A stretch of DNA of 64,000 nucleotides. It comes from an uncultured Gemmatimonadota bacterium. Its GTDB lineage: Bacteria > Gemmatimonadota > Gemmatimonadetes > Palauibacterales > Palauibacteraceae. The stretch covers positions 407,045 to 471,044 of the forward strand of contig CAJWLK010000001.1 of NCBI GenBank assembly GCA_913043255.1, in the 5' to 3' direction. This document shows, in pieces, positions 14,788 to 64,000 of this stretch (the first letter of the stretch is position 1; every line of letters begins with the position of its first letter). The translations under genes and the position numbers were made by a program. The notes below the pieces were generated by a model that did no database searches, was not told the DNA's origin, and worked only from the letters and a program-made list of their open reading frames with translations.

Positions 14788-15561
14788 TTAAGCTATGCTG
14801 TGAATGGCTTCTGCCAGCGAACTGGCCAATTCTCCAAAAGATGTTTCACTCTCCTTTAACGCCGCGATCAAGGCCGATCCCACAACAACACCGTCTGCGA
14901 CTTTAGCCACGGCAGAGGCTTGCTCAGGAGTCGATATTCCAAACCCTACGGCAACAGGAAGTCTGACGAGTTGCCTAAGTTCACGGACCTTATCCGTGAG
15001 CCCTGGCTCGAGCATCTCACTCGCCCCTGTGACCCCCAGCCTGGAAATATAATAGAGGAAACCAGAAGCACGTCCCAAGATCGTCTCTAACCTGTCGTTT
15101 GTAGTCGTAGGCGCGGTGAGCGGGATTAGGTCTAGGCTGCCTGATGCTAGCCGATTTTCAAGCTCCGGATGCGAGTTCACCGGAAGGTCGGTGACTAATA
15201 ACCCAGCAGCCCCCACTGCTTGAGCCCGTTCTAAAAACTGCTCAATACCCATTCGTAGGATTGGGTTCAGATACGAAAAAATGACTACCGGCGGCAGATC
15301 TTCAGCGACCTCTCCCAGTTGATCAAGAACTGATTCGACCGTGACGCCTTGCTCTAGCGCTTGCCAACTCGAAGCCTGAATCGTTGGTCCGTCGGCTAGA
15401 GGATCACTAAAGGGAACCCCAAGTTCGATTACATCGGCTCCGGCATCAGCAAGCGACTTTAAAAGTCGCGGTGTGTCCTCCGGAGTCGGAAAGCCGCTCG
15501 ACAGAAATGGGATAAACGCAGGCCCACCGATAAAAGCATCTTCTATCCGAGAATTAGGCAT
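14788..15561 (-). CDS. trpA: Tryptophan synthase alpha subunit
   Basis: TrpA N-terminal consensus (AFIPFLSSGFPT) and length. Confidence 0.92.
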   Translation of the reverse strand: MPNSRIEDAFIGGPAFIPFLSSGFPTPEDTPRLLKSLADAGADVIELGVPFSDPLADGPTIQASSWQALEQGVTVESVLDQLGEVAEDLPPVVIFSYLNPILRMGIEQFLERAQAVGAAGLLVTDLPVNSHPELENRLASGSLDLIPLTAPTTTNDRLETILGRASGFLYYISRLGVTGASEMLEPGLTDKVRELRQLVRLPVAVGFGISTPEQASAVAKVADGVVVGSALIAALKESETSFGELASSLAEAIHSIA

Positions 15562-15578
15562 TATGTGGTGTCAGTCTG

Positions 15579-16289
15579 CTAACGCCGTGACATAAAGAGC
15601 CGGAGCACGTACCAAAACATCAGCGCTACAGAAGCGAACAACTGCAATGCAGCCGATACGTGTCGGTCGTCTGGATAGTGGAGCAGGATCTTAGACGTAT
15701 CGAAAAGGATCGCAGCACCAGCGAGCCCAATCATAGCGACAGAGAACCAAGTCCCAAGCTCAAAGCCGAATAATACGCCGGCCACAATCGCTACTAACGC
15801 AATCACCATACCAAAGCCAACGATTCCTCGTAGAAAAGAGAAATCTTTACGCGTGACAAAAACAACAGCGGTGAGTCCGCCAAAACCAAGCAGTGTCACG
15901 ACGGCAGCGCTCGAGATGGCCCCTGGCGCATAGGAGAATGCTAAGAAAAGAAGCGGACAAAAGATCAGTGCTTCAGCCACGATAAACCCACCTAGTGCCC
16001 CGTACTGTGCCATCTTGCTGTCGGCTTGAGCCGCGATCCGGGTAGCGAGCCAACTCACAACGACAAAGCCACCCAACACAAGTAGCCAGTTCACGCCGAG
16101 CATTGAGAGCGCGATCCTCTGTGCTACACCACTCCGGAATAGCATCACCTCAATCAACGTGAATATCGCAATCGAACCGAACAAATGACTGTAGGTTCGA
16201 GCTAAAAACTCAGCTCGATCCGCACTCAACGCAGAATGTGTTCGGGGTGCTCCCCGGCTGACTTCATAGTTGGTATTCACGTTGGTCAC
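15579..16289 (-). CDS. Bax-inhibitor-1/YccA family membrane protein
   Basis: Seven predicted TM helices and BI-1-like C-terminus. Confidence 0.75.
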   Translation of the reverse strand: MTNVNTNYEVSRGAPRTHSALSADRAEFLARTYSHLFGSIAIFTLIEVMLFRSGVAQRIALSMLGVNWLLVLGGFVVVSWLATRIAAQADSKMAQYGALGGFIVAEALIFCPLLFLAFSYAPGAISSAAVVTLLGFGGLTAVVFVTRKDFSFLRGIVGFGMVIALVAIVAGVLFGFELGTWFSVAMIGLAGAAILFDTSKILLHYPDDRHVSAALQLFASVALMFWYVLRLFMSRR

Positions 16290-16415
16290 TCTACCGATTA
16301 AAGAATTGAGCTACATGCAGGCTGCTCGAAGTTAAACCTCGTGGCAAGAATTGCCAGATTCTTACCAGCGCAATCCGGTCATTATGGGATTAATAAGGAA
16401 GCCAGAGATAGAGAT

Positions 16416-17159
16416 TTAGAATATTTCAACCTCATCACCTCCCAGTGTCTGGATTCGCGCCACAAGCTTTGGGTCAGAACCTTGATCAACTTGAAGATCG
16501 AGATTTAGCACGCTGAGCATGCATCGCACGCTCGCAGGATCAGGGTGTTCGGCCCGAAGAGAAATCAACTGCCCTACGGCAGGCGACGACATACCAGGGT
16601 GTTTTGTGCTCCCCCAATCGATCAAGAATGGGACCAACCCCTGACTTGGAAATGCCATCGGATCCGTAAAGTCCCAGGCGATCTCTTCACCATTAGGCTG
16701 AGCCCGCTTCCCAGAGCGAACCTGGCCAAGTGGTACATCCTGTGCATTCGCCTTGGCAACCAGTTCTTTTAACCCACTCCCTTTGGCCGCCCATGTCACG
16801 AGCCTGGGCTTGACTAGTGTCTCGATGCCAAAGAGTAATTGTTCTGTTTCAGACTCGGAATCCGGGTCAGGACCAAGCAGTTCCACATAAGTTTCCGGGC
16901 CCAGTGATAACAGATAGTTCGCCGTGCCCCACCGTGGGTGGCGCCCTCCATAAACTGGTCTCACTCCGAAGACTTCCGTGATCCAGTCCACACCTGAGGC
17001 GAGGTTCGACACACCTATAACCAAGTGATCGAGAGATCTCGGCACCAACTGCTCCATTCCTATAGTCAAACCTTCACGTGTATCAGTCTGCCCACAGCCG
17101 AGAAAAGAAGGACCAACCATCGCGGCAGCAGAGGCAGCGAGGAAATCACGTCGCTTCAT
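16416..17159 (-). CDS. VOC (glyoxalase/bleomycin-resistance fold) protein with a Tat signal and lipobox
   Basis: N-terminal RRDFLA twin-arginine motif with FLGC lipobox; VOC-like domain. Confidence 0.6.
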   Translation of the reverse strand: MKRRDFLAASAAAMVGPSFLGCGQTDTREGLTIGMEQLVPRSLDHLVIGVSNLASGVDWITEVFGVRPVYGGRHPRWGTANYLLSLGPETYVELLGPDPDSESETEQLLFGIETLVKPRLVTWAAKGSGLKELVAKANAQDVPLGQVRSGKRAQPNGEEIAWDFTDPMAFPSQGLVPFLIDWGSTKHPGMSSPAVGQLISLRAEHPDPASVRCMLSVLNLDLQVDQGSDPKLVARIQTLGGDEVEIF

Positions 17160-17215
17160 AGGGTAACTCCAACCAAAGTCGTATGCCTAACTAAACCTCG
17201 GCAGTTGAATCAACC

Positions 17216-17749
17216 TTAACTATCTTCCAAATCAACACCCAAGCCATCAGCGATCCGATTAACAAATGCGAAGTATGCCGTGATCGCACAAATATCATGG
17301 ATTGCGCGGTCGTCAAATTCGTGAGCCTTTAGAACATTGACATCTGACACAATCACATCACCCGGTGTCAGCGTAAGCTTGGCAGCATAATCCAACATGG
17401 CTAATTCAGCCTTACTCACGCGAGCAGTCGTGTAGTCCTCGGACAACGCTCGAATAAGAGAATCGCTGTCATCCGCTTGAGCTCCAGACAAAGCGAGTAA
17501 TCGACGGAGACCCTCTCCGTGATGCACAATTCAGTAATGGCAACCATTTAGTGCCGAAACCATTACGGCAATCATTTCCCTCTGGATACGGGTGAGCGGG
17601 CTCTCTTCATGCATTAGCTCACGGTAAAGTTCATAGTGAAGTGGAGTAACACGACTGTGTACACCGTGAATTTGGATGATGTTATCGGTGTCCATCACCC
17701 TATCCTCTTCGGGAATGTCGGAGGGGTCTGTATAAGCGATGTAGGCCAA
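17216..17749 (-). CDS. AhpD-like / carboxymuconolactone-decarboxylase-family peroxidase, predicted selenoprotein. TGA at 17531..17533 is read as Sec, fusing the 72-aa and 103-aa ORFs. The start is uncertain: TTG at 17749, or ATG at 17698 with a GAGGA RBS.
   Basis: The two ORFs share a frame and are separated only by TGA-ATT. The TGA sits where the second Cys of the family CxxC...H motif belongs (NGCHY-U-IVHH). A hairpin lies 10 nt downstream. Confidence 0.7.
17504..17520 (-). promoter_or_regulatory. Candidate bacterial SECIS core hairpin (ACGGAGA-GGG-UCUCCGU) 10 nt 3' of the in-frame UGA
   Basis: 7-bp perfect stem with G-rich apical loop; spacing typical for bacterial SECIS. No covariance-model check was possible. 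Confidence 0.5.
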
Positions 17750-17806
17750 TACTAACTCTCAGTGTTTAGGAAGAAGCGACTGCAAAGTTTCTGGATGGTT
17801 AAGAAT

Positions 17807-19048
17807 TCAAGAGTCGAGCAGTCGCACCACTTCATCAACATCCTTATCACCCCTACCGCTTAGGCAAATCACAACAGTTTTATCGCACCACAGTTCAGCC
17901 TCCCTGCGAAGACCGGCAAGCGCGTGGGCACTCTCAAGTGCTGGGATGATACCCTCGAGGCAACACAGGTCTTGGAACGCGGCCAGTGCTTTATCATCGG
18001 GGACTGCTTCGTAGCGGACCTGTTCGGACTCTTTAAGCCAAGCGTGCTCAGGTCCGACGCCAGGATAATCAAGACCCGCCGAAATGGAGTGTGCGGGCAT
18101 TACTTGGCCACCCTCATCCTGGAGAAGATAACTATAATTACCATGAAGCACTCCGGGCTCACCAGATGCTATAGATGCCGAATGAAGTCCAGTCTCGATA
18201 CCGTGCCCTGCTGCTTCGATACCGACTAACTCAACCCGATCACGTTTAGAAGCCCGTCGATTGTTTTCCAAAAATGTTGTGAAAATACCGATCGCGTTTG
18301 ACCCTCCTCCGACACAAGCAAAGACAGCATCCGCTGTAATATCTCGTTCCATAAGCTGCATAACGGTCTCATCTCCAATGACGCGCTGAAAATCGCGTAC
18401 CAGAGCCGGATACGGCGCGGGACCAACTACCGAGCCAATGATGTAATGAGTCGTATCGACGTTCGTGACCCAATCTCTAATGGCCTCGTTCGTCGCATCT
18501 TTGAGAGTGCGGCTACCGCTTGCAACAGGAATCACCTCCGCACCTAACAGTTGCATCCGTTCCACATTTAATGCCTGTCGGCGCATATCCTCTTCACCCA
18601 TGTAGACGGCGCACTCAAAGTTTAGTAAGGCGCAGGCAGTGGCAGTCGCAACTCCGTGCTGACCCGCCCCTGTCTCTGCGATGATCCTCGATTTTCCCAT
18701 GCGCTTGGCAAGTAACCCTTGGCCAATTGTGTTGTTAATTTTGTGCGCGCCGGTATGGTTCAAGTCTTCACGCTTGAGCCAAAGATCCACACCTCCCAGA
18801 TGCTCTCCGAGGCGTTCGGCTTGATAGATAGGCGTAGGCCTACCCACGTAGTCCGTCAGACTCGCACCTAGCGCATCTCCAAAGGCCGGATCATTACGAG
18901 CTTCCGCCCAAGCTGTGGTTAACTCGTCAAGTGCTGGGATCAATGTCTCAGGAACGAATTGCCCTCCAAATTCACCGAACCAAACCACTTCTTTCGATCT
19001 CTGGATCGTTTGAGCCTTCTCCGAAAGTTCTTGACGTTTTTCCATCAC
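17807..19048 (-). CDS. trpB: Tryptophan synthase beta subunit
   Basis: [11 protein letters not shown] and [11 protein letters not shown] motifs. Confidence 0.95.
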
Positions 19049-19683
19049 ACTGGATCCTTTACTACACTCACAAACTGCGCAATCAGATTCGGCGACTTTA
19101 CACCCGGTGTGTCCTCTACCGCTGAAGACACATCCACAATGTCGGGGCGGACCTTCTCTATAGCCGTACAGACGTTCTTAGTGGTCAATCCCCCCGCAAG
19201 CACCAATCTAGGGCCGTTTCGGTCAAGACCTGTAAGCCAGTCATACGGAAACGTGGACCCGGTGCCTCCGGCTGCTTCCACTGAAAATCCTTCAACGAGG
19301 ATTGCATCTGAAACGGCAGCATAGCGTGCCCACGCGTCAACAAGATCCTGGCGTTTCATTGGACGAATGGCCTTCCAAACCGTAAGGCCTTCGGTACGCA
19401 GCATCTGGCAATCTGAAGGCGATTCAGACCCATGCATCTGCACAATATCGAATCCGGCCACATCTCGGTGAAGGAGAATGTCACTAGGCATAGTATCGAC
19501 AAAGACGCCTACAGCTCTCGTCCCACCATTTAAGACGGCTACTACGCGCGCAGCTTCCTCACAGGTCACACGACGTAACCGCTCTGCGAATACAACACCC
19601 GCGTACTCCGCACCAGCACGGCACGCTGCCCGAGCAGATTCAACTGTCTTAAGCCCACAGATCTTCACTTCAATACCGCTCAT
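19045..19683 (-). CDS. trpF: Phosphoribosylanthranilate isomerase
   Basis: VKICGL N-terminus, ~210 aa; overlaps trpB and trpC by 4 nt. Confidence 0.88.
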
Positions 19684-20516
19684 ACGGTATCGTTCCTGAG
19701 TGCTGACGGTTCCATCTCGCCACTCCTCGGGCGACGGGGGTGTCCGACGAGTGACTCGACCCCAGATTGTGGATCACCTTTCATAAGCCAACCACCAACT
19801 AAAATAGCATCCGCTCCCGCCGAGCCAGCTGCCACTGCATCTTCCGGCGAGCCAATTCCACTTTCAGCAACGGCTACAACCGACGACGGTAGACTTTCGA
19901 TCAACCGAAGAGCCTGTTCGAAATCGACTTTGAAACTCGCAAGATCACGCGCATTTACGCCGATGAGGCGAGCTCCACATTCCAATGCTTTATCAATATC
20001 GCTTTCGTCGTGAGCCTCAACGAGCGCAGCAAGCCCAAGCTCACTCGACAGGTCAAGCAGCTCACGCATTCGATTGTCTGTGAGTGCTCGCGAAATAAGG
20101 AGAATGGCATCAGCCCCAGCCGCGCGAGCCTCATATAGCTGGACCGTATCGAGTATGAAATCTTTCCTGAGGAGTGGAACTCCTACAGCTTCACGTGCCG
20201 ACCGGAGATCTTCAAGTGAACCGCCGAAATAGGTCTCATCGGTAAGGATTGAAATGGCTGCGGCCCCTCCAGCCTCATACACAGAAGCCTGCCCAGCCAC
20301 TTGAGCGTAAGGATTAATGTCCCCAGCCGACGGTGACCGGCGCTTGAACTCAGCGATGACTGAGACTTCAGACGGTCGCTGGAGGGCTACTTCAAAGCCC
20401 CGTAATGGCGGAGCCTTAACAACCTGTGCTTCTAGTGCCTTACTAAATAAAGCCAGGCTCGTAATCTCATCACGCTTCGTCCTGAGTATCTCTTCAAGAA
20501 TAGTTTGCTTTGCCAT
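19680..20516 (-). CDS. trpC: Indole-3-glycerol-phosphate synthase
   Basis: ILEEILRTKRDEI N-terminus and conserved barrel motifs. Confidence 0.9.
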   Translation of the reverse strand: MAKQTILEEILRTKRDEITSLALFSKALEAQVVKAPPLRGFEVALQRPSEVSVIAEFKRRSPSAGDINPYAQVAGQASVYEAGGAAAISILTDETYFGGSLEDLRSAREAVGVPLLRKDFILDTVQLYEARAAGADAILLISRALTDNRMRELLDLSSELGLAALVEAHDESDIDKALECGARLIGVNARDLASFKVDFEQALRLIESLPSSVVAVAESGIGSPEDAVAAGSAGADAILVGGWLMKGDPQSGVESLVGHPRRPRSGEMEPSALRNDTV

Positions 20517-52347: not shown

Positions 52348-54582
52348 TTAGCGACCTAAGCGCATCGATATGCGCTCCAACGAGTCGGCACGACCCGTCC
52401 CTTCTGTTACTTGGTAGGCTCGATCAAGTTCAAGCCCATGTAACAAATCAACGGTCCCTGAGCCGGGCCATCGGATATCTACATTGATAACTCGCAATGC
52501 GGGACCGAGACCAATCTCCTGTCGAACTGGGTTTGCACCGAAACTCCCACCCGTCCCAACAACCCTGTGAATAGTCCGAATACCTTCCCCATCCTCTACC
52601 GTGATTGAGATCCGTGCTCCAAGCCCACTACGATTAGCCTTCTGTCCTACGAGGGTGAGCACAATGAAGCGATGATCAGATCCCGGGTTCTCATAAAGTG
52701 CGTTCGGTGACAAATCGCCTTCGTTTGCGCCACCGAGCACAATGTGAACGTCAGTGTCACCATCGTTGTCAATGTCCGCGAAAGAGACTCCATGCCCTTT
52801 GTCCAGTGCACCAAATCCACCGGCACCCGTCACTTCCTCAAAATGCCCACTCTTGTTGCGGAACATTCGGTTGGGCATTAACTGTCGAAAATCAGGATCC
52901 CCTGTCCCCACAAACAAATCCAGCCAACCATCATTATCGACGTCTCCGAAGTTCGATCCCATCGCATACATAATCCGATCAAGACCGCGAGGGGCAGTCA
53001 CATCCTCGAACGTGCCATCTGCGAGATTTCGGTAGAGCCTTGGGAGTTCGGCCTCATGCTTCTCTCCCACATATTCTCTGACTATGTCCGCCGTCTGAGC
53101 TTGGTATCCGGCAGCAAACAGGTCCAGATGTCCATCGTTATCAAAATCCCAAAACCAGGTGGGGAAACTATGGAAAGGACCAGCGACTCCGGCCTTCTCC
53201 GTTACGTTGTCGAAATGCCAGTTTCCAACTGTGTCTGCCCCAGCGTTATGGAATAACAGGTTGGAACCCCGTAGAACTGAGACATAAAGATCAGGACGCC
53301 CATCGTTATCATAGTCGCCCCAATCGACACCCTTTACAAATTGTGCAATATCGAGGCCGACCAAATCAGCGATCTCTTCGAAGGTGCCGTCCCCTTTATT
53401 TCGAAACAACTCAGAGCGGTGCATAGCTCCGTCCCGCGATTCGTTGCCAACAAAAAGATCAAGCCAACCATCTCCATCAAAATCGGCCCAGCTTCCAGTT
53501 TGCGTAGGGTGCTCCGAATATATGCCTGCTTCGTACGTTACGTCTGAGAACGTACCACCATCGTTACGCAACAACGAGTTAGGAAACCCTTGGACGAGCC
53601 AGCCACCTCGGAGGACGAGCACGTCTGGATCCCCATCGTTGTCATAGTCGGCTTGTACAATGTTAAGACCACCAACAAGACCTTCTAAACCAACTTGAGA
53701 TGTGCGCTCAACAAATCGCTCTGCGCCGTCACTTTCGAAGTAACGTAGTTGGTCAAACAACCCACGTGAGGAAGCCATCACGTCAAGAAACCCATCACCA
53801 TTGAAGTCGTCCACAATGCCTCCACCTGAAATTGATACGGCATCCAGACCTACCTCAGTTGCCACGTTCCTAAACCGCTCCAGTTCCCCAGACCCTGTAA
53901 GGCTCGACCTTGGTATTCGATAATCACTGTGCACGCGATCAGGCCATTCCCCAAGAGCCATCATCGTGAGGTTAAGAATCCACTGGGCTCGAAGGTTATC
54001 AGGATCTTGCTCAAGAAGGGCACCTTGCCAAATGACTCCGCGTTCTAGGACAACACGGGCCGAATCGGACACCGGGTGAGGGACGGACGGTGGGACCTCG
54101 GGCCAACACGGATAGGCCCGCACAAGCTCAGATGATCGGGTTCTACGGAGTCGACCTACTGGACATGCCAACTCAAGCCCTCTCCGGAATAAGGCGATCC
54201 CAGTGTACTCATCGAGCGACCGACGGAAACCAGGCATCGGTTCCGCTTGTGCATCAATCAAGATCTGGCGGATCAATAAAAATTGCTCGAGCGCTGGCCC
54301 AGTAAGTCCGGCGTTCATCATTTCCTGGGCAATTGCGCCCTGGCGGAGGATCATCGCTTCCGGGACCGGAGGAGGCTCTTGATCATTGAAGAGCCGGAGC
54401 CGAGCCATATTGAGTTGTTCGTCCAACATTGGGTCGACTGATTCAGCCAGCACTTGCAGGCGCTCAGCCATACGGATTGTACCTTCAGAACCGGGCATAG
54501 CATACTCTGGCTCAGAGAGATTACCATCTCCACACCCGATGAGGAGAATCGACAAACTCGCTGCCACTATAAAAGGCTTCAC
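52348..54582 (-). CDS. CRTAC1-family lipoprotein (FG-GAP/VCBS repeats plus ASPIC/UnbV domain)
   Basis: Repeated D-x-D/N-x-DG calcium-loop motifs, C-terminal UnbV_ASPIC-like region and LIGC lipobox. Confidence 0.8.
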   Translation of the reverse strand: MKPFIVAASLSILLIGCGDGNLSEPEYAMPGSEGTIRMAERLQVLAESVDPMLDEQLNMARLRLFNDQEPPPVPEAMILRQGAIAQEMMNAGLTGPALEQFLLIRQILIDAQAEPMPGFRRSLDEYTGIALFRRGLELACPVGRLRRTRSSELVRAYPCWPEVPPSVPHPVSDSARVVLERGVIWQGALLEQDPDNLRAQWILNLTMMALGEWPDRVHSDYRIPRSSLTGSGELERFRNVATEVGLDAVSISGGGIVDDFNGDGFLDVMASSRGLFDQLRYFESDGAERFVERTSQVGLEGLVGGLNIVQADYDNDGDPDVLVLRGGWLVQGFPNSLLRNDGGTFSDVTYEAGIYSEHPTQTGSWADFDGDGWLDLFVGNESRDGAMHRSELFRNKGDGTFEEIADLVGLDIAQFVKGVDWGDYDNDGRPDLYVSVLRGSNLLFHNAGADTVGNWHFDNVTEKAGVAGPFHSFPTWFWDFDNDGHLDLFAAGYQAQTADIVREYVGEKHEAELPRLYRNLADGTFEDVTAPRGLDRIMYAMGSNFGDVDNDGWLDLFVGTGDPDFRQLMPNRMFRNKSGHFEEVTGAGGFGALDKGHGVSFADIDNDGDTDVHIVLGGANEGDLSPNALYENPGSDHRFIVLTLVGQKANRSGLGARISITVEDGEGIRTIHRVVGTGGSFGANPVRQEIGLGPALRVINVDIRWPGSGTVDLLHGLELDRAYQVTEGTGRADSLERISMRLGR

Positions 54583-57500
54583 CGCCCCTCTCCCGGCCTC
54601 ACGACGATTTCACGTGTGTTTGGTCGAACGTCATACGTCTCCTCACTCCCATCGGGCCATCGGACTCGTAAACCTTGTGCCGGTTCGCGTAGCCCGAAAA
54701 CTTGGACCACATCATTCTTTGACCAGTATCCTGACCCTGCCTGAATCTCGCGAAGTGGACCCCAACCAGAGTCATATACAATGCGCACCGAAGCCCCAAC
54801 CGCCTCAGGATTCAAGCCTGTTCCAACGAGCCGCACACGAAGGCCCGGCGTACCTCCAGCACCCTGAAAGATGGCCACCTCCTCACCATTCTGTCCGACA
54901 GCAAGGTCCCAGCGTCCATCTGCATCGAAATCCGCAATAGCTGCACCACGTGCATCACCATATATCGCAATCCCGCTGCGATCGGCACCTAAACGCAACA
55001 AGTCACCTTCACCATTTCCCAAGAGAAGCTCACCACGCCCAGCATCGTGACGCGACACTCCTTCTGGAGTTGCGAAAAAATTCTGTGCAACAAAGAGGTC
55101 TTCTGCTCCATCTCGGTCAAAATCAGCAATCACCACACCAAATGCGGGGGCATGCTGCGTGGCGGACGGTAAGGGATGAGCTTGAAAAGACCCTCCGACA
55201 TTAAGGAATAAAGTATGGTCTAACGTGACAACTTCCGCCTCGTAGATGTTGGTCCGCCCAACTCCGAGCAGTTGATCGACAGTCGCCCGAGCAAAAGTCC
55301 CGTAGGTCGGAGCAGCGCGTCGTATGAAGGGTAGAGTTGCGGACAATGCCGAATAACCACGAATTGGCACAACCGCCCCACTAGAATCTGTCTCCGATTC
55401 AATAATATCCGTTAGGCCATTACCATCGAGGTCGGCAGCATGGATACGGATGGGCCGCCGAAGTGTCGGTGTGTGGCCTGTATTTCGACCCCAGTTCGTA
55501 ACAACAAGATCAGGTAGACCATCACTGTTCAGGTCTCCAGTTGCTATGCCGTTCCAACGGCCAGGCAGCGTGCCAAGACCCCATCCATCCGTCACTTCTG
55601 AGAACTGTCCTCCGTCATTACGCAATAATCGAACAGGTCCCCACTCAATGGCCAAGATAAGATCTGGGTCTCCATCGATATCGACATCAGAAAAAACTGC
55701 GCCGGAGACAAGACCAATCCCATCGAGTACGTCCGTGGCCACAGAATCTTCAACCCATTCGCCATCTTCGTTCCGAAACATTCGCGAACTTGAGGGGAGT
55801 GGGTAGGCGCCCGGAATCGCACGTCCTCCAAGGAATAAATCCAGATCGTCATCACCATCAATGTCTGCGAGTGCCAGTGGACCTGTAGCGGAAGTAGACG
55901 CAGGGATCTTCAAATCAGGTCCTTGTGAGATAAGCATGACCGACGGAATCGTTGCAATCTCAGATGGCGTTCGAACCTCCCAATTACTAACACCAGCGAT
56001 CAAGTTCGTTCCCTCTACTGTCGGAACGGCTAAAATCCCCGTCTGGTCACCTGGCGCCTTACTCCCAACCCCAATGGGGGCAAGCAACCGACGGCGCTCT
56101 GTTCGCATCAGAAGCGTCTGACCGCCAGTTGCGGACGCAATCAATAAATCTGGATCGCCGTCCCTATCCACATCTTCCCAGCTGAGGCCTGGCCCAAGTC
56201 GAGACAATTCAACAGGGATGAGCGGTTGACGGGCCAGCTCGTCAAACTCCGATTCGATATGACGTCCACCACCCATGGGTCCGCTGAACAACGGTCTCAG
56301 CACTTCCGAATCGTGTGTAACTGGAAGAATTGACGGTGGGAACACTTCGTATGCGTTGTCGACCTCGACATTCATCTCTTTCTTGATTCCAGATGGCCAT
56401 GTAATCACGAGTTCTGCTGCATTACTTGTGCCCATAGCAAACGTCAATGAGGGGTCCGAAGCGGACAGATACATCCCGCCTGAGGTGATCTGTCTCGTTT
56501 GGCGGGGTGTAGCACCTCCTTTTAGGACTGCACGAGCTCCGATCGCTTGAGTGTTACCTGAGCGATCAAGAACTCGAACAGATATACGTGGTCGACCTGC
56601 GTCGTTACGAAGTATGAGAGGGCGTTCGTCGAGCCGCGTTATTACGAGATCCCGATCACCATCTCGATCCAAGTCGGCTGAGGCAATCCCGTGACTCACA
56701 TTGGGTTCAGTCCCGTAGGCCCAACTATCAGCGACCTCGAACGTGCCATCGCCCGTGTTTCGAAAAGCGATGTTTCGCACGTCGAGAGTTGGAAACACAC
56801 CGAGTTCTCTTCGCCAATCAACTTGGATTTGGCCGGTACGCAGAGCTTCTTGCGTATCACCATCAAGGGGATCCCATGCATGACCGTTAGTAACAAGCAG
56901 GTCTTCATAGCCATCTAAGTCTACATCGAGGAACATTGCTCCCCAGGTCCAGTCGGAGGCTGCAATACCAGCCCCTCGCCCAACCTCAGCGAATGTACCA
57001 TCTCCCCGATTAAGTTGAAGCGTATTTCTTCCCGTGGGTGCGCGCATATCAGCTCGACCCGGTGGCGTCCTCTGTACGACAGTTCCAACCGCTTGCCCAC
57101 GTCGGCGAATCTGATCACGAGCCAACATTTCAGTTGTAATAAAATCTGTGTCCCCATCGCCATCTACGTCCGAGAAGTCGACACCCATTGAAGAAGCACT
57201 GGTCGTCCGCAACTCAAGCCCAGACGCAGCACGAAACCAACCGCCCTGGTTGATCCAAAATCCGTCACGGCTCCCGAAATCGTTAGCCACGTAAAGGTCC
57301 GGGTCTCCATCATCATCCGAATCAAAAAATCGGGCTACGAGCCCCCAGTCGCGTGGAGTTTCGGCTATCGGGACACCTGCAGCAGTGCGGAACATCCCCT
57401 GGGTCATATCAACAAGTGTGAAGTGACCTGACCCATCGTTGAGATAAAACTCGTCGGGATCTGCAAGTTCAAAACGAAGTGATCGGTCGCCCACAAGTTG

Positions 57501-58244
57501 AAGACGATAATGGGCATCGTAGGGAGGTGAGACGATCAACTCATCTCCGACCCGTTGAACATAGCCCCGTAGATTTCGTTCAGCGGGGCTGAACAGATCA
57601 TCACCCTGGATGTTCTTATAGTTGGTGAAGTAAGCATCAAGATCTGCGTCTCCGTCGATGTCAGCTAAAGCAAGGGTATTTGTCCCATACTGCGGCTCAA
57701 ATCCAACGGAACGTTCCTCGAATACTCCAGTTCCATCATTAAAGAGAAGGGTGTTTGATCCGGCGTGGACAGAGACAAATAAATCCAGATCTCCGTCGCC
57801 ATCGGCATCCGCAAACACGGCCCCACGTGATAAACGTCCTGAAAGTCCCGTACTTGAAGTCTGCGTCACGTCCTCGAAACGCCACCCTCCCAGATTTCGA
57901 TAAAGGACATTCGGTTGATCAAGTAAACAGAGGTATATATCTACCCACCCATCCCCATCGACATCACCCAGGGCAACCCCAGTCCCATTGACGAGAGTCC
58001 TATTCTCAAGCCTGCGTTCGTCCGAGATGGACGTTGCCGCCTCAATCCCCGATATCGCGAGACGAACCGGTGTAAACTGTCCCTTCGCCACACCTTCGTA
58101 GCTCAAGGGCCGAGAACGATATCCGTCGGCCTCTATCCACTCAATCGAAACTTTTACAGGGGCTGGTTTGCACGTGAGGGAAAGTACAACCGCGAGCAGT
58201 GCCAGGTACGGAACAAAACCTTTATTCACAGTCCCGTTACCCAC
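54579..58244 (-). CDS. Large CRTAC1-family protein with duplicated FG-GAP/VCBS plus ASPIC/UnbV modules
   Basis: 1221 aa with two repeat-plus-UnbV units; signal peptide; 4-nt overlap with the downstream paralog. Confidence 0.8.
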   Translation of the reverse strand: MGNGTVNKGFVPYLALLAVVLSLTCKPAPVKVSIEWIEADGYRSRPLSYEGVAKGQFTPVRLAISGIEAATSISDERRLENRTLVNGTGVALGDVDGDGWVDIYLCLLDQPNVLYRNLGGWRFEDVTQTSSTGLSGRLSRGAVFADADGDGDLDLFVSVHAGSNTLLFNDGTGVFEERSVGFEPQYGTNTLALADIDGDADLDAYFTNYKNIQGDDLFSPAERNLRGYVQRVGDELIVSPPYDAHYRLQLVGDRSLRFELADPDEFYLNDGSGHFTLVDMTQGMFRTAAGVPIAETPRDWGLVARFFDSDDDGDPDLYVANDFGSRDGFWINQGGWFRAASGLELRTTSASSMGVDFSDVDGDGDTDFITTEMLARDQIRRRGQAVGTVVQRTPPGRADMRAPTGRNTLQLNRGDGTFAEVGRGAGIAASDWTWGAMFLDVDLDGYEDLLVTNGHAWDPLDGDTQEALRTGQIQVDWRRELGVFPTLDVRNIAFRNTGDGTFEVADSWAYGTEPNVSHGIASADLDRDGDRDLVITRLDERPLILRNDAGRPRISVRVLDRSGNTQAIGARAVLKGGATPRQTRQITSGGMYLSASDPSLTFAMGTSNAAELVITWPSGIKKEMNVEVDNAYEVFPPSILPVTHDSEVLRPLFSGPMGGGRHIESEFDELARQPLIPVELSRLGPGLSWEDVDRDGDPDLLIASATGGQTLLMRTERRRLLAPIGVGSKAPGDQTGILAVPTVEGTNLIAGVSNWEVRTPSEIATIPSVMLISQGPDLKIPASTSATGPLALADIDGDDDLDLFLGGRAIPGAYPLPSSSRMFRNEDGEWVEDSVATDVLDGIGLVSGAVFSDVDIDGDPDLILAIEWGPVRLLRNDGGQFSEVTDGWGLGTLPGRWNGIATGDLNSDGLPDLVVTNWGRNTGHTPTLRRPIRIHAADLDGNGLTDIIESETDSSGAVVPIRGYSALSATLPFIRRAAPTYGTFARATVDQLLGVGRTNIYEAEVVTLDHTLFLNVGGSFQAHPLPSATQHAPAFGVVIADFDRDGAEDLFVAQNFFATPEGVSRHDAGRGELLLGNGEGDLLRLGADRSGIAIYGDARGAAIADFDADGRWDLAVGQNGEEVAIFQGAGGTPGLRVRLVGTGLNPEAVGASVRIVYDSGWGPLREIQAGSGYWSKNDVVQVFGLREPAQGLRVRWPDGSEETYDVRPNTREIVVRPGEGR

Positions 58245-61033: not shown

Positions 61034-61327
61034 ATGACCGGAACACTGCTAATTGGACTTTATGTGTTCGTGCTTGCGATGCTAGTCGGGCTCGAACTCA
61101 TCACGAAAGTTCCTCCGACACTTCACACGCCACTCATGTCAGGATCGAATGCGATATCAGGGATCTCGATCGTGGGAGCATTGCTCGTGGTGGGGAGCGC
61201 AGGTGACTCCCCCTTGATGCGTTGGATAGGACTGGCTGCATTGATTCTCGCTACGATTAACGTCGTGGGGGGCTTCGTCGTAACTGACCGCATGCTTCAG
61301 ATGTTCAAGAGCAAGGACGCAGGCTGA
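61034..61327 (+). CDS. pntAB: NAD(P) transhydrogenase subunit alpha part 2 (membrane)
   Basis: 97-aa protein with 3 TM helices between pntAA and pntB. Confidence 0.88.
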   Translation: MTGTLLIGLYVFVLAMLVGLELITKVPPTLHTPLMSGSNAISGISIVGALLVVGSAGDSPLMRWIGLAALILATINVVGGFVVTDRMLQMFKSKDAG

Positions 61328-62787: not shown

Positions 62788-64000
62788 ATGACACTCGACA
62801 GACGTGCATTCCTCACCGTCGCCAGCGCTGGGTCAGCAAGCACCCTTACGTTGGGACTGGCAGGGTGTAACCTCAGCAACAGTGGCGACACCGAAGACAA
62901 AAGTCTGAGCGACTACCCAAACGATCCAGATGCAATTGAGGCACTCTACCGAGACAACATCTACACCCAACTTCTAGGAGTAAGACCTCACCTTCCCACA
63001 CACGAACACGTATCTAGATTGGGTGGTGGGCGAATGTCAGAAGAAGTCATAGCAGCCATGGCTCAGGCAAACGAATTTTTTGTAGACATGCATGAGCTGA
63101 TGGCAGCTGCGGGCGAACGGATTGCAGAGCTTGCAGGAGCTGAAGCAGCCTTGGTCACGGCTGGCGGTTTTTCGGCCATGGTACTCGGGGCAGCCGGGTG
63201 TCTCACAGGGACAGATCCAAAACGGGTGCACCATCTGCCCCACCCTACATGGGATCGCACTGAGTGCCTGATTCAAACACCCCACCGCTTCTCTTATGAT
63301 CGCGCATATAAAGATGCTGGAATGACCATCGTCGAAGCAGAGACCCGGGATGAGTTTGCGAAAAAAATCACTGAGCGGACAGCAATGATTGCCGCGCTTG
63401 TTACCGCTGAACGGCAGGCACTCTTCGCACCACCAACACCCTTGCACTGGGCTCCTGCGCCCGGCGCTGAAGTAATGAGTGTGCGCGAACAAATCAAATT
63501 GGGAAGCGACGCAGGGGTCCCAGTTCTTGTGGACATGGCCTCGGATCTCCCAACCAGAGCCAACTTAGGGGAGTTCATCGAAGCCGGAGCTGATTTGGTT
63601 GTGATCAGCGGGGGTAAAGGAATTGGCGGACCGCAGTCAACGGGCATTCTCGCCGGTCGGGCCGACTTGGTCGAGGCAGCGCGGCTCAACTCCTCTCCCA
63701 ATGACGGAATCGGACGCGGGATGAAAGTTGGGAAGGAAGAAATCGTCGGGTTAATCGTAGCGCTTGAGAGCTATGTGGCCAGCAATTTTGACGATTGGGT
63801 GGACGATTGGGGTAAAAAGGCACAGACGATCGCCGCCAAACTCCAGGATGTGCCTGGTCTCACTGCAGAAGTCGTCTTAAACACGGCAGGTTACGAAGAC
63901 GTTGAGATAACGTGGGACCCCAATGTGATCCCTCTCACAAGCGACGAAGCAAAGGCAGAACTCATGAGTGGAGAACCTCGCCTCGCCTACCTTATGACGA
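62788..64000 (+). CDS. SelA-like (PF03841-fold) PLP-dependent enzyme, Tat-exported lipoprotein, 3'-partial (runs off the window). It is absent from the ORF track because no stop codon lies within the window.
   Basis: Hand-translated. Twin-arginine motif DRRAFLT with LAGC lipobox; core GADLVVISGGKGIGGPQSTGIL aligns with E. coli SelA [21 protein letters not shown] (PLP-Lys). Confidence 0.6.
   Translation, partial: MTLDRRAFLTVASAGSASTLTLGLAGCNLSNSGDTEDKSLSDYPNDPDAIEALYRDNIYTQLLGVRPHLPTHEHVSRLGGGRMSEEVIAAMAQANEFFVDMHELMAAAGERIAELAGAEAALVTAGGFSAMVLGAAGCLTGTDPKRVHHLPHPTWDRTECLIQTPHRFSYDRAYKDAGMTIVEAETRDEFAKKITERTAMIAALVTAERQALFAPPTPLHWAPAPGAEVMSVREQIKLGSDAGVPVLVDMASDLPTRANLGEFIEAGADLVVISGGKGIGGPQSTGILAGRADLVEAARLNSSPNDGIGRGMKVGKEEIVGLIVALESYVASNFDDWVDDWGKKAQTIAAKLQDVPGLTAEVVLNTAGYEDVEITWDPNVIPLTSDEAKAELMSGEPRLAYLMT

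Follow-up and report, generated by a model that had tools for sequence, protein, structure and literature searches.

The 64,000-nt stretch of DNA analysed here (the window; uncultured Gemmatimonadota bacterium, assembly GCA_913043255.1, contig CAJWLK010000001.1, positions 407,045 to 471,044) carries on its minus strand two short adjacent open reading frames (ORFs) separated by a TGA codon, and the question is whether these are two genes, the remains of one, or a single gene in which TGA specifies selenocysteine (Sec). An earlier note on this DNA had favoured a Sec-containing AhpD-like peroxidase over a pseudogene or two small ORFs, and this choice is supported by the conservation of the TGA, by the constraint on a downstream hairpin resembling a Sec insertion sequence (SECIS), and by one protein domain that extends across the TGA. 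Judging from sequence comparison, the segment 17749..17216 (minus strand) is very probably one gene, encoding an AhpD-like thiol/selenol oxidoreductase of 177 residues that is of the TIGR01926 type and has UGA73 recoded as Sec. The features of the gene, in window coordinates, are as follows.

17216..17749, minus strand: complete AhpD-like (TIGR01926) coding sequence (CDS), predicted selenoprotein; a single frame with the TGA as its sole interruption and a TIGR01926 match
17749..17747, minus strand: TTG start codon of this CDS
17531..17533, minus strand: in-frame UGA, predicted Sec codon, residue 73, second position of the C70-H-Y-U73 redox motif
17519..17578, minus strand: catalytic helix-turn-helix segment with Glu58 (17578..17576), Cys70 (17542..17540), Tyr72, predicted Sec73 and His77 (17521..17519), assigned from conserved residues and AhpD spacing
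17504..17520, minus strand: upper stem-loop of the putative SECIS, ACGGAGA-GGG-UCUCCGU, a perfect 7-bp stem with a 3-nt GGG apical loop, assigned from fold, pair conservation and synonymous codons
17497..17527, minus strand: extended stem-loop of 31 nt with a 13-bp interrupted stem, including two 3-bp lower helices, an unpaired C at 17524 (5' arm) and a bulged C at 17503 (3' arm)
17218..17216, minus strand: TAA stop, which closes the 177-codon frame

The upstream ORF (17749..17531) starts with TTG, encodes 72 aa and ends in REMIAVMVSALNGCHY, and the downstream ORF (17527..17216) starts with GTG, encodes 103 aa and lies in the same frame. Nothing more than the TGA (17533..17531) and an ATT stands between them. 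The coordinates that the earlier note gave for this arrangement all hold, and its joined reading LNGCHY-TGA-IVHHGEGL was reproduced as 177 codons in one frame, the sequence around the recoded codon being ...ALNGCHY-TGA-IVHHGEGLRRLL... Homologues begin with MA[YF]I, as does the window ORF.

The fused protein, with Cys placed at the TGA, was used for profile searches. It matched TIGR01926 ('peroxidase-related enzyme') at 109.9 bits, as compared with a curated cutoff of 81.8, and the match of residues 39-173 to positions 47-174 of the 178-position profile spans the TGA. The CMD/AhpD (carboxymuconolactone decarboxylase/AhpD) domain PF02627 was matched at 38.1 bits (cutoff 23), also across the TGA, and the core-domain model TIGR00778 at 42.5 bits (cutoff 27.8). 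Hence, the suggested membership in the AhpD/carboxymuconolactone-decarboxylase family is borne out by the PF02627 and TIGR01926 scores. The score with the canonical AhpD model TIGR00777 was 19.8 bits, below the cutoff of 191.95, only the core domain being in common. The fused protein likewise fell below the cutoff of NF041238 AhpD_rel_CFYUT (57.1 versus 175 bits), for which positions 212-337 of 357, i.e. the C-terminal half of the profile, were matched.

Five solved Cys-type structures (2pfx, 3c1l, 6k40, 2oyo and 2prr) match the protein over nearly its full length with E values of 4e-23 to 3e-16. The C-x-Y-C-x-x-x-H segment of PDB entries 2pfx, 3c1l and 6k40 aligns residue for residue with C70-H-Y-[TGA]-I-V-H-H77, and in the Cys-type homologues P0006, P0008, P0010, P0011, P0036 and others the TGA column is occupied by the second Cys of C-x-Y-C-x3-H, verified in the DNA as TGC or TGT codons. 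These homologues and structures place the TGA at the second Cys of the C-x-x-C-x3-H motif, as had been proposed. In the AhpD proton relay, the residues are Glu118/Cys130/His132/Cys133/His137 in the protein of M. tuberculosis and Glu36/Cys48/Tyr50/Cys51/His55 in PA0269 of P. aeruginosa (PMC3141380). The spacing of Glu58, Cys70, Tyr72, Sec73 and His77 is identical to that of both relays, and the pattern E-12-C-x-[HY]-C-x3-H is present. In a 22-sequence family alignment E58 and Y72 are invariant and C70 is nearly invariant, and the HH that follows the TGA is invariant in 82 sequences.

Conservation of the TGA was assessed in the 80 best genome loci, taken from one-genome-per-species representatives, and in a metagenome scan of 79 loci that was deliberately seeded with Cys-type proteins. 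The TGA occupies exactly the same column, in the context C-x-[YF]-TGA-x-x-H-H, in all 80 genome loci, which belong to more than 10 phyla and include Gemmatimonadota, Acidobacteriota, Planctomycetota, Calditrichota, Marinimicrobia/Fidelibacterota, Chloroflexota, Eisenbacteria, Zixibacteria, Desulfosarcina and others. Despite the Cys seeding, 68 of the 79 metagenome loci have TGA and 11 have TGC or TGT. Among the nearest relatives in the subfamily, 147 distinct Sec forms were found versus 8 Cys forms. All 147 retain HH..L.. on the 3' side of the TGA, where 104 codons are open and the peptide is conserved at 50-65% identity. Identical TGA and peptide context was seen in six independent ENA assemblies of the lineage of the window, which derive from different samples (L001-L006), and the TGA is also present in the nearest named genome, an uncultured Gemmatimonadota metagenome-assembled genome (MAG; CAYZOT01, locus L008; 93% protein identity). 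Locus L009, on the complete chromosome of Candidatus Palauibacter (NZ_OZ250143.1), has the TGA form as well.

In bacterial SECIS elements of the E. coli fdhF type, the SelB-binding hairpin lies directly 3' of the UGA. The perfect 7-bp hairpin with a GGG loop reported at 17504..17520 is present as described. It starts 10 nt 3' of the TGA and its loop begins 17 nt past the UGA. Like the fdhF-type element, it lies inside the CDS right after the UGA, its small loop contains a G with G or U next to it, and a base bulges out beneath the upper stem (consensus model, PMC13188914); unlike that element, the window hairpin has a different sequence and a shorter structure, and its binding of SelB is a prediction. 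The published bacterial SECIS model has an apical loop of 3-9 nt, an upper stem of 4-16 bp, at least one G within the first two nucleotides of the loop and commonly a G or U after it, a distance of 16-37 nt between UGA and apical loop, and a minimum free energy (MFE) of ≤ -7.5 kcal/mol (PMC13188914, Fig. 2 legend). The window hairpin agrees with it on 4 of 4 criteria (GGG loop, 7 bp, 17 nt, -8.4 kcal/mol). These values, together with the synonymous-site constraint on the stem described below, uphold the claim that the position and G-rich loop of the hairpin match those of a bacterial SECIS.

A fitting hairpin with a loop of 3-8 nt and a stem of 4-12 bp occurs in 146 of the 147 distinct Sec-type sequences. 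Among these 146, the spacing between UGA and loop is 16-17 nt in 118, and 139 have G at the first or second position of the loop, the commonest loops being CGGGU, GGG and CGGGA. The MFE limit is passed by 56 of the 147 on the hairpin alone, which is an undercount, since only contiguous stems were considered and lower stems were ignored. In the window, the 17-nt hairpin alone folds at -8.4 kcal/mol with z = -2.5 (2 of 200 dinucleotide shuffles fold equally well) and the extended stem-loop 17527..17497 at -11.4 kcal/mol with z = -2.55, and a looser 61-nt fold is indistinguishable from shuffles (z = -0.52). Folding of the single sequence is by itself weak evidence; the comparative data lift the hairpin above chance.

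Base pairing was counted on a gap-free alignment of 82 sequences, with slid and shuffled partners as controls. The six core pairs are each kept in 73-94% of the sequences and the five inner pairs in 86-94%. Overall, 72.6% of cells are paired, and sliding the partners by 1-3 columns lowers this to 33-47%. Covariation is seen at the closing pair (CG 22, AU 13, GU 5), one side of which is a synonymous Gly site. The lower pairs are partly conserved in the family, pair 13-32 in 51, pair 12-33 in 56 and pair 11-34 in 15 of the 82 sequences.

Codon usage was compared with that of the invariant Gly, Leu and Arg in N-R-x3-G-L-G, a C-terminal motif encoded by the same genes, which served as control positions. 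Gly is encoded by GGR in 124 of 128 cases in the SECIS versus 97 of 274 at the control positions, Leu by CTC in 129 of 144 versus 47 of 137, and Arg by CGT in 109 of 132 versus 12 of 137. Fisher P values for these biases range from 1e-23 to 1e-37, in a statistic that treats related sequences as independent. The eight Cys-type genes form 3.6 of the 6 core pairs, as compared with 5.6 of 6 in the Sec forms; they use GGT, CGC, CGG and CTG without the SECIS codon bias, and they have lost the GAGLR peptide. The relaxation of stem and codon bias in the Cys-type genes ties the hairpin to the TGA. Selection that acts on the RNA structure, and not on the encoded peptide alone, is thus supported by these sequence patterns.

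The residues after HH vary in the Cys-type loci L088-L093, L147, L151 and L158-L160 (GGNLR, VAGLR, GVWLR, ADAFG, KAGLV and others), and Sec-type genes retain G-A/E-G-L-R at this place. It seems that the SECIS constrains the protein sequence, and not solely the reverse. Some copies of Pirellulaceae/Mariniblastus (Planctomycetota-type loci L033, L027, L052, L063, L038 and L056; alignment columns 14-30) have a different stem at the same position, e.g. GGCCAAG/CUUGGCC or GUCGC/GCGAC, together with a GGUCU-type loop. In these Planctomycetota the hairpin is maintained via multiple compensatory changes, and the peptide has changed as well.

TGA is the commonest ordinary stop in the window, where it ends 21 of 42 long ORFs, and TGG encodes 206 Trp codons. 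The stop usage points to the standard code, the recoded site being a local exception. Outside the long ORFs, 36 other in-frame TGAs with redox-like neighbours were found in the window, and none is followed by a hairpin with the SECIS properties listed above.

Each of the other explanations of the split frame has something to recommend it. A TGA lies one nucleotide away from TGC or TGT, and gene callers do split the gene into 72 and 103 aa, as they would if a former Cys-type AhpD-like gene had become a pseudogene through a nonsense mutation. Such an allele would not persist, however, and the frame beyond it would decay, yet across more than 10 phyla the 147 distinct sequences all keep this TGA, and the 104 downstream codons are open and conserved, which excludes a pseudogene as a serious reading. 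As the synonymous-site constraint on the hairpin is also specific to the TGA forms, the mutational explanation is extremely improbable. The metagenomic origin of the source makes an assembly or sequencing error, with TGC as the true codon, conceivable in principle, but the occurrence of the identical TGA context in the six independent assemblies excludes it, and the MAG of 93% identity points the same way; the probability left to a read-level error, which the earlier note had listed as a way to be wrong, is negligible.

Two real small proteins of 72 and 103 aa, or a code in which TGA means Trp or Gly, would account for the fact that 71 of the 120 best protein matches are of about 100-110 aa or slightly longer and that some full-length entries have W at the column in question. 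Both are barely credible: a single Pfam/TIGRFAM domain and a single catalytic motif cross the TGA, and the solved homologues are single chains. As for the code, TGA ends half of the long ORFs of the window, Trp is encoded there by TGG, no other plausible recoding site was found among the in-frame TGAs of the window, and the W entry P0002 has TGA in its DNA and is an artefact of translation (see below). Read-through that is independent of a SECIS or does not involve Sec, by a near-cognate Trp or Cys tRNA or by Cys-tRNA(Sec) at scarce selenium, would yield a protein with little or no Se. It is in keeping with the failure to locate Sec machinery in the window or about 9 kb to the right of it, and the inserted residue is not readable from sequence alone. 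Nevertheless, in geometry and in its G-rich loop the hairpin resembles the SECIS elements that depend on SelB, it is under constraint in the TGA forms alone, and the TGA falls on the Cys/Sec redox site of a family already classed as a selenoprotein family (PMC13188914), which makes non-Sec read-through unlikely.

Several observations weigh against recoding of UGA73 as Sec. In the literature found, there is no experimental report of selenium in any member of the subfamily to which the window gene belongs. Neither tRNA-Sec, ARAGORN giving a tRNA-Gln only, nor selA, selB or selD turned up in the window (64 kb) or in the roughly 9 kb that follow on its right; the window scan compared NCBIfam with all ORFs of at least 300 aa other than trpB, which was identified by a precomputed Pfam PALP hit, and the extension was read from a matching 245-kb ENA contig. 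Two scans of the window for a second selenoprotein gene found none. At the hairpin, no Rfam family reached its gathering score, the sole Rfam match of the window being the tRNA-Gln, and a permissive Rfam scan of 17400..17600 gave only a chance match to mir-154 (E = 5.6). The Rfam result is a missing match and does not amount to a lack of function. From the gap-free alignment of 82 sequences, RNAalifold derived no consensus structure, and the hairpin sits within the conserved HHG(A/E)GLR peptide, so its conservation is partly at the protein level. Relatedness is ignored in the pair statistics as it is in the codon statistics.

With these points taken into account, Sec insertion at UGA73 is still considered very probable, and its course may be pictured as follows. 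At UGA73, the ribosome would meet the hairpin that starts 10 nt downstream, which would act as a bacterial SECIS and recruit SelB-GTP-Sec-tRNA(Sec), so that Sec would be inserted and termination avoided. Sec73 would take the place of the second Cys in the AhpD C-x-x-C motif, within the Glu58/Cys70/Tyr72/Sec73/His77 proton relay, and would cycle between a selenolate and a Cys70-Sec73 selenenylsulfide, thereby reducing either a peroxide or the oxidised form of a peroxiredoxin-type partner protein. We infer the SelB dependence of insertion, the selenium content and the kind of substrate or partner. Sec machinery would be expected to be encoded in the genome, given the conserved UGA and the SECIS.

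The protein is of a known kind, as had been stated at the outset (PMC1088965, PMC2398784, PMC13188914). The 'AhpD-like protein' (COG2128, CxxU) entered the literature in 2005, when 27 sequences from the Sargasso Sea were described as a selenoprotein family not known before and the SECIS was shown in a figure (PMC1088965). In the Global Ocean Sampling (GOS) survey, 'AhpD-like 1' ranked fourth in abundance among selenoprotein families, with 299 Sec and 902 Cys sequences (PMC2398784). Reviews from 2022 and 2026 list the family (COG2128/YciW; TIGR01926, CxxU, one Sec; PMC9312934, PMC13188914), and it serves as the example of BSepDB (PMC13326102). The window gene shares with this family the TIGR01926 score above cutoff, CxxU with the predicted Sec at the second Cys, the short G-loop SECIS right after the UGA, and a marine metagenomic habitat, as indicated by a Tara Oceans contig with the pntB gene of the window. 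Nothing essential sets it apart, the window copy being found in Gemmatimonadota between trpB and trpA. The literature searches found no direct statement on Sec use in Gemmatimonadota, and the phylum is unmentioned in the selenoprotein surveys consulted.

Other relatives are further removed. The Cys-type TIGR01926 proteins of known structure (2pfx, 3c1l, 2oyo, 2prr and 6k40, 'alkyl hydroperoxide reductase AhpD') share the C-x-Y-C-x3-H motif that aligns with C70-H-Y-U73-I-V-H-H77, but have Cys in place of the UGA and need no SECIS; in Cys-type genes the stem and the HHGAGLR peptide are lost. M. tuberculosis AhpD and PA0269 share the relay of Glu, 12 residues, Cys-x-(His/Tyr)-Cys-x3-His, the third residue of which is Tyr in PA0269 and in the window gene alike (PMC3141380). 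They differ in chain topology and size, and the window gene has the predicted Sec for Cys, lacks an ahpC neighbour and scores below the TIGR00777 cutoff. NF041238 AhpD_rel_CFYUT ('hypothetical protein 1', Sargasso Sea) also combines an AhpD-type domain with a C-x-x-U motif, but it is about twice as long, and the window gene, which misses its cutoff, is no member.

The treatment of such genes in public collections was followed in a protein-collection search that gave about 700 relatives, of which the best 120 were examined for coverage. In 71 of these 120, only the C-terminal 51-59% of the query is covered, because gene callers restart just past the unrecognised Sec codon. Some NCBI entries of 100-109 aa are named 'peroxidase'. 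Full-length database entries have Cys or Trp at the Sec column, Trp being found in P0001-P0005, P0014, P0020, P0026, P0061 and P0110. For P0002 (locus L007:340-342), the codon in the DNA is TGA and the locus does not yield the stored protein under table 11; hence its Trp is a translation-table artefact. The same origin is presumed for the remaining W entries.

There is no novelty here at the level of the family; the result is a correct identification of a known kind of selenoprotein. AhpD-like CxxU proteins have already been described among the most abundant marine selenoproteins, and the finding adds little that is new for biology. Its practical value lies in annotation, as the catalytic N-terminal half with Glu58 and Cys70 is restored, and the correct annotation marks out this lineage of Gemmatimonadota as one that probably uses selenium. 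What may be under-appreciated is that the Sec form dominates the subfamily, that the SECIS is near-invariant across phyla, and that mis-annotation in public collections is systematic. A broader proposal is put forward tentatively and, taken as a whole, is rather doubtful: that the subfamily is essentially Sec-obligate, that a near-invariant SECIS (ACGGRG-CGGGU-CUCCGU) dictates the HHGAGLR peptide, and that gene and SECIS have spread as a unit over more than 10 phyla, including marine Gemmatimonadota. If true, a Sec-obligate subfamily with a SECIS-dictated motif would be useful as a marker of lineages whose use of Sec has gone unrecognised, and would exemplify an RNA signal that fixes a protein motif.

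Three candidates in the window that could be taken for parts of a Sec system were rejected. PurL gave only a weak match as selD, which is ordinary paralogy. The gene directly after pntB (432 aa; window 62788..64000 and on past the window end; L174:11458-12756) scored 39 bits with TIGR00474 (selA; cutoff 267.9), had a weak Pfam SelA match, and scored 146 bits with TIGR01437 (cutoff 385). It is a DgaE/selA_rel-type paralogue, resembling pyridoxal phosphate (PLP)-dependent ammonia-lyases, and is no evidence of Sec machinery. The TGA at 61325..61327 is an ordinary stop between a 97-aa PNTB_4TM gene (small pntA subunit) and pntB, which lie in the same frame.

The AhpD-like gene is embedded in a tryptophan-biosynthesis cluster on the minus strand (window 14788..20516), between trpB and trpA. 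The other genes of this segment are as follows.

19680..20516, minus strand: trpC
19045..19683, minus strand: trpF
17807..19048, minus strand: trpB (Pfam PALP)
16416..17159, minus strand: Glyoxalase_3 protein with a twin-arginine-like N-terminus, MKRRDFLAASAAAMVG...LGC
15579..16289, minus strand: Bax1-I/YccA-type membrane protein
14788..15561, minus strand: trpA

Of the 80 related genome loci, no more than 4 have the gene next to trpB, and these belong to close Gemmatimonadota relatives. No neighbour gene is conserved across the 80 loci, the largest cluster comprising 6 loci, and a redox partner is therefore not inferable from gene context. Cys-type homologues (L088:5065-6543, L093:1-35 and neighbours) lie near genes with AhpC-TSA, Redoxin or Thioredoxin domains and near pairs of extracytoplasmic function (ECF) sigma and anti-sigma factors. 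This hints at an oxidative-stress regulon around the Cys-type genes; the Sec-type genes show no such surroundings.

Three proteins of the window (the 103-aa fragment, PntB and neighbours) are found identical and in the same order on the 245-kb ENA contig (ERZ27286493 k119_1158635), and the PntB region with the same neighbouring genes is also present on the Tara Oceans contig (ERR599156, PRJEB1787). Together with the nearest named genome, CAYZOT01, these contigs identify the source as a marine bacterium of the Gemmatimonadota. Elsewhere in the window, two adjacent large ORFs of 744 and 1221 aa (52348..58244, minus strand) have no NCBIfam match; the precomputed Pfam annotation of the matching contig assigns FG-GAP_3/UnbV_ASPIC repeats to them.

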